From Leucoraja erinacea (Eukaryota): 64,000 nt of DNA. The notes under the pieces were generated by a model. That model saw only the letters and a list, made by a program, of their open reading frames with translations. It ran no database searches and was not told the origin of the DNA. The first letter of the stretch is position 1. Every line of letters starts with the position of its first letter. The stretch spans positions 28,830,001 through 28,894,000 of the forward strand of contig NC_073387.1 in NCBI RefSeq assembly GCF_028641065.1. The letters run 5' to 3'. The position numbers were made by a program, and so were the translations under genes. Shown here in pieces: positions 7,177 through 16,205 of the stretch.

Positions 7177-7403
7177 GGTTACACAAAAAAGCTGGAGAAA
7201 CTCAGCGGGTGCAGCAGCATCTATGGAGCGAAGGAAATAGGCAACGTTTCGGGCCGAAACCCTTCTTCAGACTGAAGAAGGGTTTCGGCCCGAAACGTTG
7301 CCTATTTCCTTCGCTCTATAGATGCTGCTGCACCCGCTGAGTTTCTCCAGCTTTTTTGTGTAACCTTCGATTCTCCAGCATCTGCAGTTCCCTCTTAAAC
7401 AAA
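7177..7403. mobile_element. Penelope-like element terminal remnant forming a 189-bp palindrome
   Basis: 7177-7270 and 7272-7365 are 94-bp inverted arms with one mismatch. Flanked by the 15-bp direct repeat AAATAAGATTGCTTG (7163-7177, 7404-7418). Same sequence as the 3' UTR of the PLE at 14443-15405. Confidence 0.85.
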
Positions 7404-8240: not shown

Positions 8241-8751
8241 ATAGTTGTTTCAACATTGTATTTATGTTTTTAGAGCGATTACACTGATGGCAATTACTCA
8301 TGAACATTGATCAAAGGTCACAATCAAGATGTCATGCTACTGAAAGCAGTACTTTGGGTTCAGATCCATCGGGGTAAGCAATATATCATTTTCATGGTCA
8401 AAAAAGGTAAACTGAGATCTCTGTTGGTAACAAACTAACAAAAAATTTACACCGATGAAATATAACACTATTTTGCTACTTGGTTGGATCACATAAGGTT
8501 AGAAAGTCTCGTTGTTTTTTTATGTTAATCAGAGTTCAAATTGCTTATGAATGATCCCCGGAGAATATGTTCAACAAAGAAAAATACAAGCTTCTGAAAA
8601 ATATAAATAAAAACTGAAAATCTTACAATTTATCTTGCTCCATTTTGTCAACATATTCAAAGGAGTAAAAAATTATGGTTTTCTTGCTTGTTATGGCTTA
8701 TTTGTCAGCTATATCTGTTTTTGTACCTTTTTCATCAACATATGGAGCATA

Positions 8752-8827
8752 ATTTTACTTCGGAGTCACGTGAGTGACTACGTGAAGAACCCACCCAGTG
8801 CGCAGGCGCGGCATTACGTCAGCAGCG
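8752..8827 (+). repeat. DIRS left terminal repeat
   Basis: 8752-8788 is complementary to ICR 13232-13268. 8779-8827 is inverted relative to 13446-13495. Confidence 0.9.
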
Positions 8828-8935
8828 CAACAGCGGCAGCAGCTGGAGCCAGGCTCTCCAGCGGCAGGATAAAGACAAGACCTCAGGTAAGTGAGTCTTT
8901 TGTGTTACAGAGAGTCGCTAACGGACGAAAAAGCT

Positions 8936-10162
8936 ATGGCTACCCGAAAGCGACCAACAAAGAGGACTGCCTGTCCAACTCCACCCGAGGAGGGGTCAAT
9001 ATCTGGGCGGCAGCCACCAGCGGCGGAGGAGCTGTTTGAACGCTCCCGCACACCCGACGCCGAGCCGCTCCCTGTGCCGCCGATTGCGACGCCCCGCACA
9101 GGGAGAAAATCAACCCGGAAAACAAACCGGCCGGTGGCCTCCGACTCGTCGGAGGAACGGGAACACTCTCCACCGGCGAAACGGGGAGACGGCCACTTAA
9201 GCTGCATGAGGCAGCTGCTCGAGCAGATGCTCGACGAGGAGATGCAGGCAAGGCATCTCCAAGGAGGACGGGCTATGGCCTCCTCCAAACCATCACCACA
9301 CCCTTCTGTTCCCTCCTTGTTTGAGGTCAGTAAGGGAGGCCAGGACTGGGCTGGCCTATCACAAGGGCAGGCGGACGACAGTGCAAGCATGCCAGGCGAG
9401 CTGGAGGAAGAAGAGCTACTGGGTGTAGTCAGCAGGTATGCGGCGCCCCCGAGGACCGGAATGATGCTAGCGCCAAGAATGGCGGCCAGTATCAACAGGC
9501 TCTCCAATAAGCCATTGCAGGAGAAAGTCATTCAAGAGGCCCTCGACACTTACACAGCGCCGGAAAACTGCGAAGCACTGCGAGTAAAGACCGTAAACGG
9601 CCAGATATGGAGCCAGCTGGGGCAGCATATCAGGACACAAGAGCTGAAGATGCAGCGTATCCTGAAGCTCCACACCGCAGCCATTACCGCCTTTGCTCGG
9701 TCCACGGGGAACGCAGAGCTCTCTACACCTCAGCAGGATGTGCTGGCCCTAATGTGCAACACACAGTATGAGCTCAACAACCTAAGGTGTGAAAACATCA
9801 GGCCTGCCCTCAACCCCAAATACGCGGGCCTCTGCAAAGCTCCGGCGCCAGAAAAGGAGGCGCTACTATTCGGGGCCGACTTGGCAAAAAGGCTCAAGGA
9901 ACTGGAAGAGGCGGCCAAACCTGTAGGCCTCATGAGGGCAGGGCCAGGACCGAGCAGGGTGAAGACACCCAGTTGGCAGCACGCCTCGGCATCCACCAGC
10001 AGGTACCGAGCTGATGAAAGCCTGGTGACCGCTTCCCACTACCCCCAGAGCTCTTTTTTAGAGCGGGGCCCAGAGCGGAGCCGTGGGAAGATACGCCGCC
10101 CCACCACAGCACCAACAAGGACACCCTCGGGCCAAACCCATCGCAAACGCTCCCAGAAATGA
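8936..10162 (+). CDS. gag: DIRS ORF1, gag-like protein (408 aa from first ATG)
   Basis: Uninterrupted ORF with a low-complexity N-terminus, then PENCEAL..VNGQIW..ELNNLRCENIRPAL..LLFGADL resembling DIRS1 gag. Stop overlaps the pol start (ATGA at 10159-10162). Confidence 0.85.
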   Translation: MATRKRPTKRTACPTPPEEGSISGRQPPAAEELFERSRTPDAEPLPVPPIATPRTGRKSTRKTNRPVASDSSEEREHSPPAKRGDGHLSCMRQLLEQMLDEEMQARHLQGGRAMASSKPSPHPSVPSLFEVSKGGQDWAGLSQGQADDSASMPGELEEEELLGVVSRYAAPPRTGMMLAPRMAASINRLSNKPLQEKVIQEALDTYTAPENCEALRVKTVNGQIWSQLGQHIRTQELKMQRILKLHTAAITAFARSTGNAELSTPQQDVLALMCNTQYELNNLRCENIRPALNPKYAGLCKAPAPEKEALLFGADLAKRLKELEEAAKPVGLMRAGPGPSRVKTPSWQHASASTSRYRADESLVTASHYPQSSFLERGPERSRGKIRRPTTAPTRTPSGQTHRKRSQK

Positions 10163-12099
10163 ACATGGAGGTAGGTGGGTCTGGTTCCTGTCGACATACG
10201 CAGACAAAGGGTGTTGTATTAACAGGAAGGCGTTTAAGGTTCTTCAAACATGTTTGGTGCTCCTTTACTAGCAACAAGTTTATACTCAACAGTATCAGTG
10301 GATACAAAATTGAATTTAAACCAGGCATAGAACCGCCGGTTCAGCACATACCCCAAAGGGTATTCCTTCCCACAGAATCAGAAAAGGTAGAAGGACAAGC
10401 TGAACTAGATAGGCTCGTGTCCAAGGGCATCATAGAGAGGGCCAGACACGAGCCATTGGAATTTGTATCGAATATATTTATCAAAACTAAAAAAGATGGT
10501 GGATGTCGCATTATCATTGATTTGACATCACTAAATCAGTCTGTTGAGTATCAACATTTCAAAATGGAGACATTTGTTACTGCCAGACAACTGATCTCCA
10601 AGGGATACTTCATGGCAAGCATAGATATTAAGGATGCTTACTATTTAGTACCCATTCATAAGGATCATTTCAGATATCTGAAATTTATCTGGATGGGGCA
10701 ACTATGGCAGTATAGAGCATTACCCAATGGTTTAACGACAGCTCCCAGATTATTTACTAAAATTCTCAAAGTGGCCATGAAAAAATTAAGAGAACAAAAA
10801 CATTTAGTCATGGCCTATCTGGACGATGTTCTCATATTGGGGCGAACAAGGGAACTAGCTGTCGCAGGAGTTTTAGCTACTAAACAGCTCCTTGAAACAT
10901 TGGGATTTGTTCTACACCCAGATAAATCAATATTGAAGCCAACAACTAACATGGACTATCTAGGCTTCACTATTGACACTATCCGTATGACTGTCACTCT
11001 GCCAAGAGACAAAAAGGCTACATTAACAGAAGCCTGTAACAACTTAATCGCAAAAACACAACCAAGGATCCGGCATGTAGCCAGAGTCATTGGTAGTATA
11101 GTAGCAGCATTTCCAGCTGCACAATATGGCCCCTTGCATTATCAGAATTTACAAAGAGCAAGGACACATGCACTACGTCTAAGTAGGGGGCATTATGACC
11201 GACCTATGGATTTACCCGCTGAAGCCAAATCAGAACTTCAGTGGTGGGTGGATAACATTTGGCACAGTTACAGTCCTATCGCCGTCACCAATCCTAACAT
11301 AGCCATTACAACGGATGCCAGTGCTTTAGGCTGGGGAGCTACTAACTCTATATCCAGCACAGGTGGCAGATGGACTAATTCAGAGGCATCGCTACTACAA
11401 TCACTTGGCATAAATTATTTGGAGATGCTGGCCGCCCTTTATGGGCTAAAAGCATATGTATCCGATATGCGGCACGTGCATGTCAGGTTAATGATTGATA
11501 ACACGACGGCGGTGTCTTACATCCAGCACATGGGTGGCATAAAATCAGTATCATGCGACAAATTGACTACTATAATCTGGCAATGGTGTGTCGAGAGACA
11601 TATTTGGCTATCAGCTGCCTATTTACCAGGCAAGCTAAACACAGTGGCGGACACCAGGTCACGAAAATTCAATGACAACATCGAATGGATGTTAGACCCA
11701 AAAATATTTGCTAGAATTGTTAAGCAATACGGTACGCCAGATATAGATTTGTTTGCGTCTAGATTAAATCACCAGCTACCCATGTATGTGGCTTGGGAAC
11801 CAGACCCAGAGGCAGCAGCGGTAGATGCCTTCATGCTGGATTGGGGAAATTTCTTCTTCTATGCTTTCCCTCCCTTCAGCCTCATCAGCCGGGTACTCCA
11901 GAAAATACAAGCAGACTCAGCTTCAGGTATTCTGGTCGTACCCGACTGGCCTACCCAACCATGGTTCCCAGTCTTCCACGACATGGTGGTAGAGTCACCT
12001 ATGGTTTTTCACAGCCACCCACAACTATTGACTCACCCGGTATCCGGCATAAGCCATCCATGCCATCAAAAATTGAAACTCCTGGTTTGTAGGTTCTGA
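10159..12099 (+). CDS. pol: DIRS ORF2: reverse transcriptase, RNase H and Dam-like methyltransferase domain
   Basis: RT: KKDGGCRIIIDL, IDIKDAY, ALPNGL, YLDD, YLG. RNase H: TDAS..WG, INYLE, IDNTT, NTVAD. MT-like: IDLFAS, YAFPPF, VVPDWPTQPW. Confidence 0.95.
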   Translation: MNMEVGGSGSCRHTQTKGVVLTGRRLRFFKHVWCSFTSNKFILNSISGYKIEFKPGIEPPVQHIPQRVFLPTESEKVEGQAELDRLVSKGIIERARHEPLEFVSNIFIKTKKDGGCRIIIDLTSLNQSVEYQHFKMETFVTARQLISKGYFMASIDIKDAYYLVPIHKDHFRYLKFIWMGQLWQYRALPNGLTTAPRLFTKILKVAMKKLREQKHLVMAYLDDVLILGRTRELAVAGVLATKQLLETLGFVLHPDKSILKPTTNMDYLGFTIDTIRMTVTLPRDKKATLTEACNNLIAKTQPRIRHVARVIGSIVAAFPAAQYGPLHYQNLQRARTHALRLSRGHYDRPMDLPAEAKSELQWWVDNIWHSYSPIAVTNPNIAITTDASALGWGATNSISSTGGRWTNSEASLLQSLGINYLEMLAALYGLKAYVSDMRHVHVRLMIDNTTAVSYIQHMGGIKSVSCDKLTTIIWQWCVERHIWLSAAYLPGKLNTVADTRSRKFNDNIEWMLDPKIFARIVKQYGTPDIDLFASRLNHQLPMYVAWEPDPEAAAVDAFMLDWGNFFFYAFPPFSLISRVLQKIQADSASGILVVPDWPTQPWFPVFHDMVVESPMVFHSHPQLLTHPVSGISHPCHQKLKLLVCRF

Positions 12100-13070
12100 A
12101 CAGGCCTTACCAGGGATTGGGGTTATCAGAACGAACAATCACCACCATGTCGGCGTCCCTGCGAGTCTCTACCAAGAAGCAGTACTTGACCTACATCAGG
12201 AAATGGGAGCAGTACTGCTTGGATGCAGGGACATCATACAAGACAGCCTCGATCACGGACGTGCTGGAATTCCTGGCCCACTTGCACCATGACCAAAAGA
12301 TGAGCTACAGTGCCATCAATGCAGCACGGAGCGCCCTGTCCGCTTACCTTATGCCTACAGGACATCACAGCATTGGATCCCACCCTCTGGTTATAAAACT
12401 CCTCAAAGGGATTTATAATACTAAACCCCCTACACCCAGATACACCCATGTATGGGACATAAGTGTAGTTTTGTCACACCTTAGAGGTTGGCCTCCGGTG
12501 GGATCCTTGAGTCTGGAGCAGTCCACTCTCAAGACCCTCATGCTTATGGCGCTCGTCTCTGCGCAAAGGGTTCAGTCACTGCATCAACTAAGACTGGACA
12601 ACATGGTAACCACCCCAGACTCCATTACATTTACAATGCCGGGGTTGGTAAAACAAAGCAGGCCAGGTATGCCCAACTCTCCGCTAATCTTCCGGGCCTA
12701 CCCTCCAGAACCTAGGCTGTGTGTAGTGACCCATCTATACAACTACGTAGACACAACCCAAACGCTTAGAGGGAGTGAAAAAGCCTTATGGGTCAGCCAC
12801 AAAAAGCCTTTTGGACGGGTTACCAGCCAGACAATATCTAGGTGGTTGAAACAGGTCTTAAAAGCCGCGGGGATTAACACGGATGTTTTTAAATCCCATT
12901 CTATCAGGGCAGCGTCCACGTCAGCGGCGGAACGGATGCAGGTTCCCATAGACCACATCCTTAGTACAGCGGGATGGTCAAGGGAATCAACGTTCCGAAA
13001 ATTTTACCACAAACCGCTGATGGAGAAGGACTTGTTTGCGGACAAAATTTTAGAATCTGCAAACTTATAA
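12093..13070 (+). CDS. DIRS ORF3: tyrosine recombinase
   Basis: Frame open from 12093, first ATG at 12147. N-terminal STKKQY..W domain. Catalytic R (AQRVQSL), HSIR, AGW and Y (FRKFY). Confidence 0.93.
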   Translation, partial: VLNRPYQGLGLSERTITTMSASLRVSTKKQYLTYIRKWEQYCLDAGTSYKTASITDVLEFLAHLHHDQKMSYSAINAARSALSAYLMPTGHHSIGSHPLVIKLLKGIYNTKPPTPRYTHVWDISVVLSHLRGWPPVGSLSLEQSTLKTLMLMALVSAQRVQSLHQLRLDNMVTTPDSITFTMPGLVKQSRPGMPNSPLIFRAYPPEPRLCVVTHLYNYVDTTQTLRGSEKALWVSHKKPFGRVTSQTISRWLKQVLKAAGINTDVFKSHSIRAASTSAAERMQVPIDHILSTAGWSRESTFRKFYHKPLMEKDLFADKILESANL

Positions 13071-13106
13071 TTTAAAGCCCAGGGGAGCTATTTTTTGTTA
13101 TTGTTA

Positions 13107-13112
13107 AATAAA
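13107..13112 (+). promoter_or_regulatory. Candidate poly(A) signal of DIRS transcripts
   Basis: AATAAA about 37 nt after the YR stop, followed by T/GT-rich sequence. Confidence 0.4.
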
Positions 13113-13231
13113 CATTTTTGTTTCAAAAAACTAACAAACTCGTTGGTCTTTAGATACCACTTCCTCCCTCGATGAACTTCAGCAGTGAGTGATATAGCTG
13201 TTACACGGTTTGAAATCACAGACCTTTGAAG

Positions 13232-13344
13232 TCTTCACGTAGTCACTCACGTGACTCCGAAGTAAAATAGTGAGATTAAACGAGTACTTACCAGTACGAA
13301 GTTTGATCTGTATTTTATGAGGAGTTACGATGAGGGATTACGTG
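13232..13344. repeat. DIRS internal complementary region (ICR)
   Basis: 13232-13268 is the exact reverse complement of 8752-8788. 13266-13344 is the exact reverse complement of 13490-13568. The two halves share AAT at the junction. Confidence 0.95.
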
Positions 13345-13445
13345 CCCTCCGCTCCCACCCTCGTTGTATAGATCAAACTCGAGCTGATGTCTCTTTAATC
13401 TTTACTATCTTTACTTCAATATTGTGTCTACCTGTGATTCCACAC

Positions 13446-13568
13446 CGCTGCTTGGAAGTATGCCGCGCCTGCGCACTGGGTGGGTTCTTCACGTAATCCC
13501 TCATCGTAACTCCTCATAAAATACAGATCAAACTTCGTACTGGTAAGTACTCGTTTAATCTCACTATT
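13446..13568 (+). repeat. DIRS right ITR plus right extension
   Basis: Inverted copy of the left ITR, followed by an extension complementary to the ICR. Ends ...CTCACTATT. Confidence 0.9.
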
Positions 13569-14442: not shown

Positions 14443-15405
14443 TTAAGAAGGAATTGCAGATGCTGGAAAATCGAAGGTAGACAAAAGTGCTGGAGAAACT
14501 CAGCGGGTGCAGAAGCATCTATCGAGTGAAGGAAATAGGCAACGTTTCGTGCCGAAACCCTTCTTCAGACTGGTGTAGGGTGGGGAGAAGAAAGAAACAA
14601 GGAAGAGGAGGAGCCTGAGGGCTGAGGGAGAGCTGAGAGGGGGAGGAGACAGCAAGGGCTACCGTAAATTGGAGAATTCAATGTTTATGCTGCTAGGGCG
14701 CAGACTGCCCAAGCGGAATATGAGGTGCGGCTCTTCCAATTTCCGGTGGTGCTCACCCTGGCCATGGAGGAGGCCCAGGACAGAGAGGTCGGATTCAGAA
14801 TGGATGGAGGAGTTGAAGTGCTGAGCCACCGGGAGATCAGGTTGGTTAATGCGGACCGAGCGGAGGTGTTCGGCGAAATGATCGCCAAGCCTATGCTTGG
14901 TCTCACCGATGTAGATCAGCTGACATCTAGAGCAGCAGATGCAATAGATGAGGTTGGAGGAGATGCAGGTGAACCTCTGCCGTACCTGGAATGACTGCTT
15001 TTGTCCTTGAATGGAGTAGAGGGGGGAGGTAAAGCGACAAGTGTAGCATCTCTTGCGTTTGCAAGGGAAAGTACCCGGGGAGGGGGTGGTGCGGGAGGGA
15101 AGGGAAGAATTGACCATGGAGTTATGGAGGGAGCGGTCTTTGCAGAAAGCAGACATGGGGGAGATGGGAAGATGTGGCTAGTGGTGGGGTCACGTTGGAG
15201 GTGGCGAAAATGACAGAGGACTATTTGTGGTATGTGACGGCTAGTGGGGTGAAAGGTGAGGATTAGCGGGACTCTGCCCTTGTTGTGAGTGCGGGGATGG
15301 GCAGAGAGGGCAGTGTTGCGGGGTATGGAAGAGACCCTGGTGAGAGCCTCATCTATAGTGGGGGAGGGGAACCCCCATTCCCTGAAGAATTAGGACATTT
15401 CCCTG
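14443..15405 (-). mobile_element. 5'-truncated Penelope-like (Neptune-type) element
   Basis: GIY-YIG ORF plus 3' UTR with hammerhead-like motif. 14-bp TSD GTGYGATGAGGTGT (14429-14442, 15406-15419). Confidence 0.9.
14659..15156 (-). pseudogene. PLE GIY-YIG endonuclease domain fragment
   Basis: PCKRKRCYTC Cys motif, NLIYCICCSRCQLIYIGETK..L..F.EH, VAQHFN, RKLEE..LIFRLGSL..INIE. Confidence 0.9.
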
Positions 15406-15711: not shown

Positions 15712-16205
15712 GTGTAGGAAGGAACTGCAGATACTGGTTTACACCGATGATAGACACAAAATGTTACTCAACTAACAAGCTACGAACTAACAAAATATTT
15801 ACACTGATGAAATATAACACTATTTTGCTACTTGGTTGGATTACTTAAGGTTAGAAAGTCCCACTGTTTTAATGTTAATCAGAGTTCAAATTGCTTATGA
15901 ATGATCCCTGGAGATTATGTGCAAAAAAGAAAAATCCAGGTTTCCGAAAAATAGCTTTTAGTAACTCAACGGGACACGCAGCATCTCTGGATAGAAGGAT
16001 TCGGTGAAGTTTCGAGTCGAGATACTTCTTCACACTGAGAGGCAGGGGAGAGGGAGACACAGATATAAGGAAAAGTAAGGTGTGAAAACGAGACATCAAA
16101 GGAGATGCATGCTCACGGAAAATGTAGAATGGACCATTATTAGCTAGTGAAAGTGACAATGAAACATACAGAGATAAAATTTAATCGGGGGGACAGTCAG
16201 ACTGA
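15712..16205 (-). mobile_element. PLE 3' terminal fragment interrupted by a roughly 190-bp insert
   Basis: GGAAGGAACTGCAGAT..TAGACACAAAATG, then insert, then AGTAACTCAACGGGAC..CATCTCTGG. Homologous to 30920-31310. Confidence 0.7.
15785..15953 (+). repeat. Diverged direct copy of 8433-8603
   Basis: Shared ATGAAATATAACACTATTTTGCTACTTGGTTGGAT and ATGTTAATCAGAGTTCAAATTGCTTATGAATGATCCC. Confidence 0.9.

Follow-up and report, generated by a model that had tools for sequence, protein, structure and literature searches.

An intact DIRS1-like element lies at positions 8752-13568, on the forward strand of the window (the whole 64,000-nt stretch of the Leucoraja erinacea contig NC_073387.1 that was analysed), and has at least 28 near-identical copies. 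It probably makes Gag-Pol by a -1 frameshift, and its tyrosine recombinase (YR) as a Gag-linker-YR fusion translated from an RNA spliced between a donor (D2) and an acceptor (A2). What was observed are the motifs, frames, conservation and co-variation; from these we infer the slip and the splice, and also the fusion proteins and their packaging. Translation of unspliced RNA would yield Gag (408 aa) or, with a slip at 10054-10060, Gag-Pol (1,054 aa). Since D2 sits past the gag stop, an RNA deprived of the predicted 1,922-nt D2-A2 intron (10171-12092), which carries the RT, RNase H and methyltransferase (MT) coding sequence, would still code for the whole Gag, and the same slip would then yield a Gag-linker-recombinase of 737 aa. 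Both Pol and the recombinase would thus be linked to Gag, in a fixed low proportion, and enter the particle with it. Some members of the skate lineage may in addition make a free M-E-recombinase from the ATG at 10165. For animal DIRS1-like elements at large we lean, with some reserve, towards a common plan in which one -1 slip serves two enzymes, the choice being made by keeping or removing a pol-sized intron with its donor held directly past the gag stop: genomic RNA would give Gag-Pol, and spliced RNA the Gag-linker-recombinase. The long pol/YR overlaps of many families would be the translated tail of the acceptor.

The left inverted terminal repeat (8752-8814) begins with ATT, and the right inverted repeat with its extension (13460-13568) finishes with ATT. 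The halves of the internal complementary region (ICR, 13232-13344) overlap in AAT at 13266-13268, which corresponds to the 3-bp circular junction. ORF1 (8936-10162, from the ORF list, 408 aa) is gag-like and belongs to no Pfam family; a match with PF09102 (E 0.03) is below the cut-off and was taken as chance. The pol ORF (10159-12099, in a frame open from 10018) contains a reverse transcriptase (PF00078, E 9.7e-17, above cut-off), an RNase H-like region with no Pfam match, where TDAS and NYLE are visible, which we take to be RNase H motifs, and a Dam-like MT stretch with a match to PF05869 below cut-off (E 0.0076), the relatives aligned there carrying PF05869. The YR frame (12093-13070, 325 codons) matches PF00589 above cut-off, and its first ATG, at 12147, is codon 19. 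Of the catalytic R..HxxR..Y residues, R159, R272 and Y305 are invariant among 25 sequences and H269 nearly so. A candidate polyadenylation signal (AATAAA) is found at 13107-13112.

The first-pass annotation had proposed two introns bounded by four splice-like motifs, all of which are present in the element with the phases it gave: D1 (CAG/GTAAGT, cut at 8886/8887, motif 8884-8892), A1 (..TTTTTTAG, ending at 10061), D2 (GAG/GTAGGT, 10170/10171, motif 10168-10176) and A2 (..TTTGTAG/G, 12070-12092), in which the TAG doubles as the stop at the upstream edge of the YR frame. D2 is in phase 0 of the pol frame, 12 nt past the ATG at 10159 and 11 nt past the first base of the gag stop. The leader (8752-8936) and the gap between A1 and pol (10062-10158) are indeed free of ATG. 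With splice-site weight matrices, D1 and D2 rank 1 and 3 among the 214 GT sites of the element, and A1 and A2 rank 32 and 22 among its 349 AG sites, so the acceptors by themselves are not above chance. Two features had been missed: a better-scoring acceptor at 8910 (A0), which ranks 4, and the slippery nature of A1, a heptamer phased for a -1 shift from gag to pol.

This heptamer, T TTT TTA at 10054-10060, is the predicted frameshift site. The programmed -1 frameshift sites of HIV-1 and MMTV at gag-pol and gag-pro are U UUU UUA and A AAA AAC. Relative to gag, pol is read in the -1 frame in the two intact skate families examined; the same holds for 17 of the 19 metagenome loci that match gag, and the other two look broken. 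An in-slip-phase heptamer is found in 17 of 24 family representatives (T TTT TTA in 10, A AAA AAC in 7) and an out-of-phase one in 1 of 24, while about 2.1 are expected in any phase. From the heptamer to the gag stop the -1 frame is open in 20/20 families against 4.8 expected under synonymous recoding, a count somewhat inflated because the representatives of multi-copy families were chosen for an open pol frame; the same test of the overlap gives 12 families open in the +1 frame, with 12.0 expected. In this element the putative transframe linker (10060-10170, 37 codons of the pol frame) overlaps the gag tail and is open from the heptamer to D2. Most of the diverged families have no pol ATG near the start of pol. 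An intact heptamer is missing in copies of two skate families (L162 and L163/192/197), as well as in L161, all with D2 and A2 present. Segment folds at the putative frameshift site, for nested base pairs, gave z from +0.4 to -0.8; across 20 families the region folds more stably than its flanks (p 0.002), though shuffled sequences do as well (mean z -0.3).

As an acceptor, A1 does not survive the family comparison. Among the 17 families with a heptamer, 7 have A AAA AAC with no AG, and in one more a T follows TTTTTTA and the AG is lost. Besides, 2 of the 5 skate families with an intact motif carry an out-of-frame ATG directly after it. From these comparisons A1 seems better read as a -1 frameshift heptamer than as an acceptor, and the earlier proposal that D1-A1 splicing is the route to pol is not upheld. 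D1 itself, a strong leader donor here, can be seen in 23 of the 25 skate copies whose left end is recognisable (6/6 families); most metagenome relatives have a weak D1 or none. A0, a pyrimidine tract plus CAG ahead of the gag ATG (8893-8910), follows D1 by 24 nt in this element and by about 25-65 nt in other skate families; the spacing is too short for an ordinary intron here and too short to splice in three families. D1 is a skate-lineage feature with its own nearby acceptor, and the ATG two codons ahead of D2 belongs to the same lineage.

An unlikely alternative is that D1-A1 splicing drops gag and lets pol be translated from its own ATG, that D2-A2 splicing of the same RNA then gives a free M-E-recombinase, and that in skates the heptamer has a dual use or is chiefly an acceptor. 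The wide presence of D1 in skates agrees with it, as do the G that follows TTTTTTA in all skate copies having it and in 9 of 10 representatives, the good-context ATG ahead of D2 in 5 of 8 skate families, and the short D1-A0 spacing of three families, where D1 may need a farther acceptor. On the other hand, the low rank of A1, its replacement in 7 families and the out-of-frame ATGs behind it all argue against this route, some families have D1 yet no ATG before D2, most metagenome relatives are weak in D1 or lack it, the D1-A1 junction is in neither the reads examined nor the genome, and splicing alone leaves the fixed -1 phase and the open linker unexplained.

By family comparison D2 is deeply conserved and in phase 0. 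Within 150 nt ahead of the pol anchor, the best donor is in phase 0 in 18 of 24 families and scores at least 4 in 16 of 24; only 4.5% of 264 control windows reach that score (p 1e-9). In 16 of the 17 families with a heptamer, the phase-0 donor lies 5-38 nt past the gag stop, a count that uses the second-ranked donor in L082, L096, L103 and L114, while the spacing of this donor to the RT anchor ranges from 15 to 114 nt. L126/L142 have no credible D2. Stop codons up to about 50 nt ahead of a junction escape nonsense-mediated decay, so that with donors in this position Gag would remain whole and the spliced RNA would be spared.

The mini-exon MNME of the first-pass annotation did not hold, since the ATG at 10159 is missing in 7 of 29 near-identical copies and the one at 10165-10167 is kept in 29/29; any mini-exon would be M-E. 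The ATGA gag/pol overlap, offered as a reinitiation route, is lost in 7 of 29 copies and hence is not conserved. Nor is the pol ATG supported as a general start for YR, being absent from most relatives. The pre-D2 ATG (A at -3, G at +4) lies 2 nt past the gag stop codon in this element and less than 20 nt past it in family 2. Its closeness, good context and full retention in near copies would suit a scheme in which D2-A2 is spliced and the skate recombinase, with some Pol, starts from it by re-initiation, giving a free 327-aa protein with no D1-A1 splicing. We consider this improbable. Re-initiation after an ORF of 408 codons is inefficient unless a special signal is present, the overlap is not always retained, and the ATG is missing in 3 of 8 skate families and in most relatives.

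At the other end of the predicted intron, the evidence comes from 29 families (39 representatives minus 10 with a broken pol frame, including six skate copies); a first metagenome query was too diverse to reveal patterns. The YR frame is open for at least 64 codons upstream in 20 of the 29 families, when 2.15 are expected, and 17 of these 20 have a phase-0 YAG 64-76 codons upstream, three having no such distal YAG. The serine at this distal acceptor is coded by AGY in 15 of 17 cases, against a 30% background. The corresponding position here is 11856-11879, in the FPPF motif of the MT; its use is predicted in many relatives, and the site reads AG in this copy, and TG in the other skate families and the two older copies that were checked. 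Most families with a proximal AG have a closed YR frame and the distal Ser changed to Cys. In skates, a YAG occurs at A2 in 8/8 families and at the mapped place in 41 of 47 loci, at least 2 of the misses being one-base mapping offsets. The proximal acceptor requires only 2 changes on a quick tree, so its 2x2 table (p 0.002) amounts to about one event. As at A2, the acceptor TAG of L086, L098, L099, L101 and L127 also serves as the stop that bounds YR. The GT-AG consensus of D2-A2 is conserved in place and phase across families, which suggests that an intron removing RT-RH-MT does feed the YR frame, as first proposed. Conservation of the four sites and their phases therefore stands for D2 and A2 and fails for D1 outside skate and for A1 as an acceptor, and the first-pass annotation as a whole is partly supported.

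A direct splice from D1 to A2 was rejected as a general route, because in most copies of two families the first ATG past A2 is out of frame. The same ATGs speak against the idea that no functional splice exists, YR being expressed instead through read-through, another frameshift out of pol or an internal promoter at Met19, and the motifs serving other ends such as U1 binding or coding constraint. Its attractions are that YR is in the -1 frame relative to pol, that a Met recurs at YR codon 19-20 in many families, that no junction read or spliced copy appears in the data searched, and that a frameshift into YR was proposed for Ngaro by Poulter and Butler 2015, as quoted in the accessible part of PMC13003380. 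Yet a TAG shuts the YR frame 2 codons before the end of pol in this element and at the start of the long pol/YR overlap in five relatives, no constant slippery site was found at the pol/YR junction across families, and the AGY bias and the enrichment of phase-0 donors count against it as well. Moreover, a predicted model of YR aligns from residue 5-7 on with residues 20-341 of Cre (Z 21.9, rmsd 4.0, 296 aligned), so a start at Met19 would lose the first helices, those matching the Cre N-terminus; the earlier claim that YR needs residues upstream of Met19 is backed to this extent. We therefore hold this explanation to be scarcely more credible than re-initiation.

The Gag-linker-YR join predicted by the frameshift-plus-splice plan is present in public gene models of a sea urchin and a beetle. 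In Diadema, XP_071483612.1 and XP_071502116.1 run from gag through an FFRP linker to YR from its residue 1, with no RT. At three Callosobruchus loci the models come in pairs, one for a 380-aa Gag and one for a Gag-linker-YR of 686-710 aa; for the pair that was tested, 55/55 linker codons are those of the gag tail read in the -1 frame. These models enter the -1 frame via small, probably invented introns.

RNA was searched in three raw runs chosen by species label and one contig set, 4 of 24 listed, reading 5-25% of each run and calling a junction from at least 3 reads with 2 starts and a 2% share. The 10170>12093 joint was absent from 1,006 + 2,941 + 3,190 reads of the three runs and from 52 contigs of the fourth, and neither of the junctions expected by the first-pass annotation (8886-10062 and 10170-12093) was seen in the 7,137 reads, which come mostly from diverged copies and unspecified tissue. 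Read depth near D2 was about 13-49. Reads at least 99% alike number only 679 of the 7,137, and both strands are represented, so passive transcription of old copies may account for the reads. The sole short-range joint (8881>9332, 3 reads) has non-canonical CT..GT ends and no exact genomic match. Exact probes for both junctions found no spliced genomic copy, none of the internal deletions listed for copies joins these sites, and no relative was found in the viral contigs searched. The single match of a degenerate multi-family D2-A2 probe has no DIRS match and looks like a host exon. One copy (L178) has its leader joined to a point shortly ahead of the pol ATG; as the GT is retained and the join lacks an AG, it is a deletion rather than a splice product.

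If true, the plan places a frameshift site and one intron at exact coordinates and predicts proteins of 408, 1,054 and 737 aa. It would explain the absent start codons, the TAG ahead of YR and the pol/YR overlap of about 70 codons, and it suggests how a Cre-like recombinase could enter particles. The annotated N-termini of DIRS YR and Pol would then probably be wrong, and animal genomes would add many natural -1 frameshift cassettes.

The resemblance to the HIV-1 and MMTV frameshifts covers both heptamers, the phase, the overlapping gag tail and the transframe linker. The differences are that the integrating enzyme here is in a third frame, outside Pol, and that the stimulatory stem-loop or pseudoknot of the viral sites has no clear counterpart in the nested-pair folds of this region. 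With the DIRS1-like superfamily (Piednoel et al. 2011, PMC3266345) the element shares the gag, RT-RH-MT and YR ORFs, inverted termini, ICR and 3-bp circular junction, with ATT ends and AAT junction. The DIRS order accounts for about 2% of the zebrafish genome (PMC9341512), and in X. tropicalis about 1% of the genome is DIRS (PMC9210276). PMC3266345 records ORF overlaps, and splic-, intron and translat- never occur in its text; no expression route for DIRS is given there or in the accessible text of PMC9210276, PMC7192593 and PMC3950715. The frameshift-plus-splice plan was not found in the papers searched; Poulter and Butler 2015 and PubMed 11606703 may mention frameshifting or splicing in DIRS1. 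In murine leukemia virus, as the available portion of PMC10496198 describes, the SD' RNA (P50/P60) arises from a splice that skips most of pol and joins Gag to integrase sequence, and P50, part of Gag plus the last 116 aa of integrase, is packaged. Alternative splicing past most of pol and fusion to Gag are thus common to both, whereas P50 involves no frameshift and is accessory, and here the whole recombinase would rest on slip plus splice. Ngaro, judging from the same portion of PMC13003380, is a sister group with overlapping ORFs for which frameshifting was proposed. That proposal concerns the pol-YR overlap, whereas here the slip is placed at gag-pol and the splice at the entry to YR.

An intact DIRS1-like retrotransposon lies at positions 8752-13568 of the window, with ATT and inverted termini at its ends (8752 and 13568), an internal complementary region (ICR) whose two halves overlap in AAT, a gag ORF (8936-10162), a pol ORF ending at 12099 with a reverse transcriptase (RT) match, and a tyrosine recombinase (YR) frame (12093-13070). 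A ~175-nt repeat flanks the insertion (8430-8603 and 15782-15953; 90% identity, 7.35 kb apart), and at 7177-7365 a short interspersed repeat forms a nearly perfect palindrome of 94 nt. On the minus strand, adjoining the element (14659-15389), are two open frames resembling a Penelope-type RT tail and a GIY-YIG endonuclease fragment. The first-pass annotation had described four splice-like motifs, donors D1 (CAG/GTAAGT, 8886/8887) and D2 (GAG/GTAGGT, 10170/10171) and acceptors A1 (ending at 10061) and A2 (12092), and all of them, with their phases and ATG-free stretches, were recovered when the window was re-read. By splice-site weight matrices, D1 and D2 rank 1 and 3 among 214 donors, and A1 and A2 just 32 and 22 among 349 acceptors. 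The second-ranked donor is in the right terminal extension (13540-13548), has its complement in the ICR, and would stand ahead of an acceptor at 8910 on a circular or tandem form.

The host is most likely little skate, since a protein carrying the NCBI label Leucoraja erinacea matches the genome at 100%. At least 29 full-length copies with 96-100% identity are present in the skate's own genome (29 of 29 scored candidates; 11,899 candidates in all). D1, A1 and the AG of A2 are invariant in these 29; the TAG of A2 is CAG in 2, and the ATG at 10159 is missing from 7 and that at 10165 from none. Since conservation among such similar copies tells little, diverged families were collected. From the own genome, 60 more stretches were taken, 40 of which clustered with 7 earlier loci into 8 skate families (80% YR identity), two being single copies. 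The best 80 of 116 metagenome loci (pol ~40% identical; hosts presumably animals), together with two skate references, gave 45 families. Each test was restricted to families with the required region intact.

A1 is very likely a -1 frameshift site, with a slip predicted from its sequence. In the gag frame it reads T TTT TTA G, and pol, which is -1 relative to gag, is open from that point. T TTT TTA is a heptamer of the HIV-1 type, as A AAA AAC is of the MMTV type. Of the 24 representatives whose pol start is intact, 10 carry T TTT TTA in this phase and 7 carry A AAA AAC; an out-of-phase heptamer occurs in 1, with ~2.1 expected in any phase. The two classic heptamers interchange and one has no AG, which is unlike the behavior of an acceptor. 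This, and the absence of an ATG near the pol start in most relatives, argues against the earlier proposal that A1 is the acceptor for pol. Between heptamer and gag stop, the -1 frame is open in 20/20 cases (17 representatives and 3 skate families; 4.8 expected) and the +1 frame in 12/20 (12.0 expected). Neither heptamer is in phase in L104, L113, L116, L142 and L148, and no intact one was found in the copies examined of L161, L162 and the L163 family, which are decayed. In two related families (L091, L112), gag and pol form a single open frame without heptamer, so a slip is unnecessary. Folding around the heptamer established no stimulatory RNA structure.

Conservation of the proposed sites extends to metagenome relatives for D2, which all 8 skate families also have, but hardly for D1, which 23 of the 25 skate copies having a left end carry and which is strong in 1 of 13 metagenome leaders examined. 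Skate copies inspected by eye have a pyrimidine tract and AG ~25-65 nt after D1, before the gag ATG; D1 may be a leader intron donor where length allows, or a U1 site. TATA-like and initiator-like words, which recur in skate families ~20 nt before and just after D1 (window 8868-8910 and L164-L200 leaders), mean that some transcripts possibly start beyond it. D1-A1 splicing is possible in skate, although two families there have an out-of-frame ATG after A1.

Within 150 nt ahead of the pol anchor, the top-scoring donor is in phase 0 in 18/24 families and scores at least 4 in 16/24, versus 4.5% of 264 control windows. D2 lies 5-38 nt after the gag stop in 16/17 heptamer families (L126, without D2, is the sole exception), with 15-114 nt to the RT anchor. 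D2 holds up as a conserved signal, and its position tracks the gag stop, not the RT anchor. Spliced RNA would still encode the whole Gag and, under the 50-nt rule, should escape nonsense-mediated decay. An ATG two codons ahead of D2 is found in 5/8 skate families and, among metagenome families, only in L112, immediately before D2, so it cannot serve as the general YR start previously suggested.

The putative acceptor of YR occupies two alternative positions, proximal (A2) or distal, at the FPPF-S motif of the methyltransferase (MT). Every skate family, along with five or six from the metagenomes, has a YAG at or beside A2, and in these the YR frame closes 0-33 codons upstream. Most other families have none, and the frame is open for at least 64 codons upstream in 20/29 (2.15/29 expected from synonymous recoding of pol; 10/39 representatives with broken pol were left out). 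Seventeen of these 20 frames reach a phase-0 YAG in or beside FPPF-S, its Ser being AGY in 15/17 (30% elsewhere) and Cys in most proximal-acceptor families; in five families with the distal site the acceptor TAG is the stop bounding the YR frame. L091 and L112 keep phase-0 D2 and the distal acceptor. The 2x2 table of acceptor states (3, 7, 17, 2) gives p 0.002, which is overstated because the proximal state requires just two changes on a quick tree; the open frame across deeply diverged lineages is the stronger sequence argument. Families L124-L133 and L150 (proteins P0149 and P0152, 927-928 aa) have very long open YR frames, 560 codons upstream in L124, with no clear D2 or acceptor, and probably use a different expression route.

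The predicted junctions were not seen among 7,137 RNA reads and 52 contigs (679 reads at least 99% alike; both strands; tissue unspecified), and junction searches and inspection of internal deletions found no spliced genomic copy. Three reads of run X19 skip 450 nt (window 8881-9332), from 5 nt ahead of D1 to 1 nt beyond an AG; the skip is non-canonical, with no exact genomic match. One locus considered as a splice product, L178 (G000:C2:18055600-18062000), was rejected as a deletion: its leader is fused directly to 13 nt before D2, gag is gone, and the ATG and pol are kept. A numerous family-2 lineage (L031-L069, e.g. G000:C11:37009150-37010175) shares a ~1,050-nt deletion from RT core to MT, retains D2, A2 and the heptamer, and is a non-autonomous derivative.

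We consider that the D2-A2 splice is probably used, and lean towards a Gag-linker fusion as the main form in which the recombinase is produced. Predicted gene models, two from sea urchin in RefSeq and others at three beetle loci, run from gag through the -1 linker into YR, with RT absent. In the AlphaFold model of YR (pLDDT 86.7), helices span residues 4-8 and 13-20, and the alignment of the model to Cre 20-341 begins at residue 5-7. A start at Met19 (12147) would be too late, and the model supports a requirement for upstream residues. The first-pass interpretation is supported in part: D2, the YR acceptor and the residues before Met19 are kept, and the D1-A1 route to pol and the pol ATG as general YR start are not supported.

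The family is a known one, DIRS1-like. In the portions covered of the literature searched, main reviews excepted, no description was found of this expression plan, nor of a frameshift heptamer or splice signal in DIRS1 (PMC3266345, PMC13003380, PMC7192593, 10.64898/2026.05.21.726589, PMC9210276, PMC6681497, PMC8547959, PMC4495291, PMC9940879, PMC3950715, PMC9341512, PMC4157794, PMC10496198). Of these, PMC4495291 infers that the domesticated gag sequences within TMPO and ZNF451 carried in a splice acceptor, and PMC13003380 quotes Poulter and Butler as proposing a frameshift for the YR of Ngaro.
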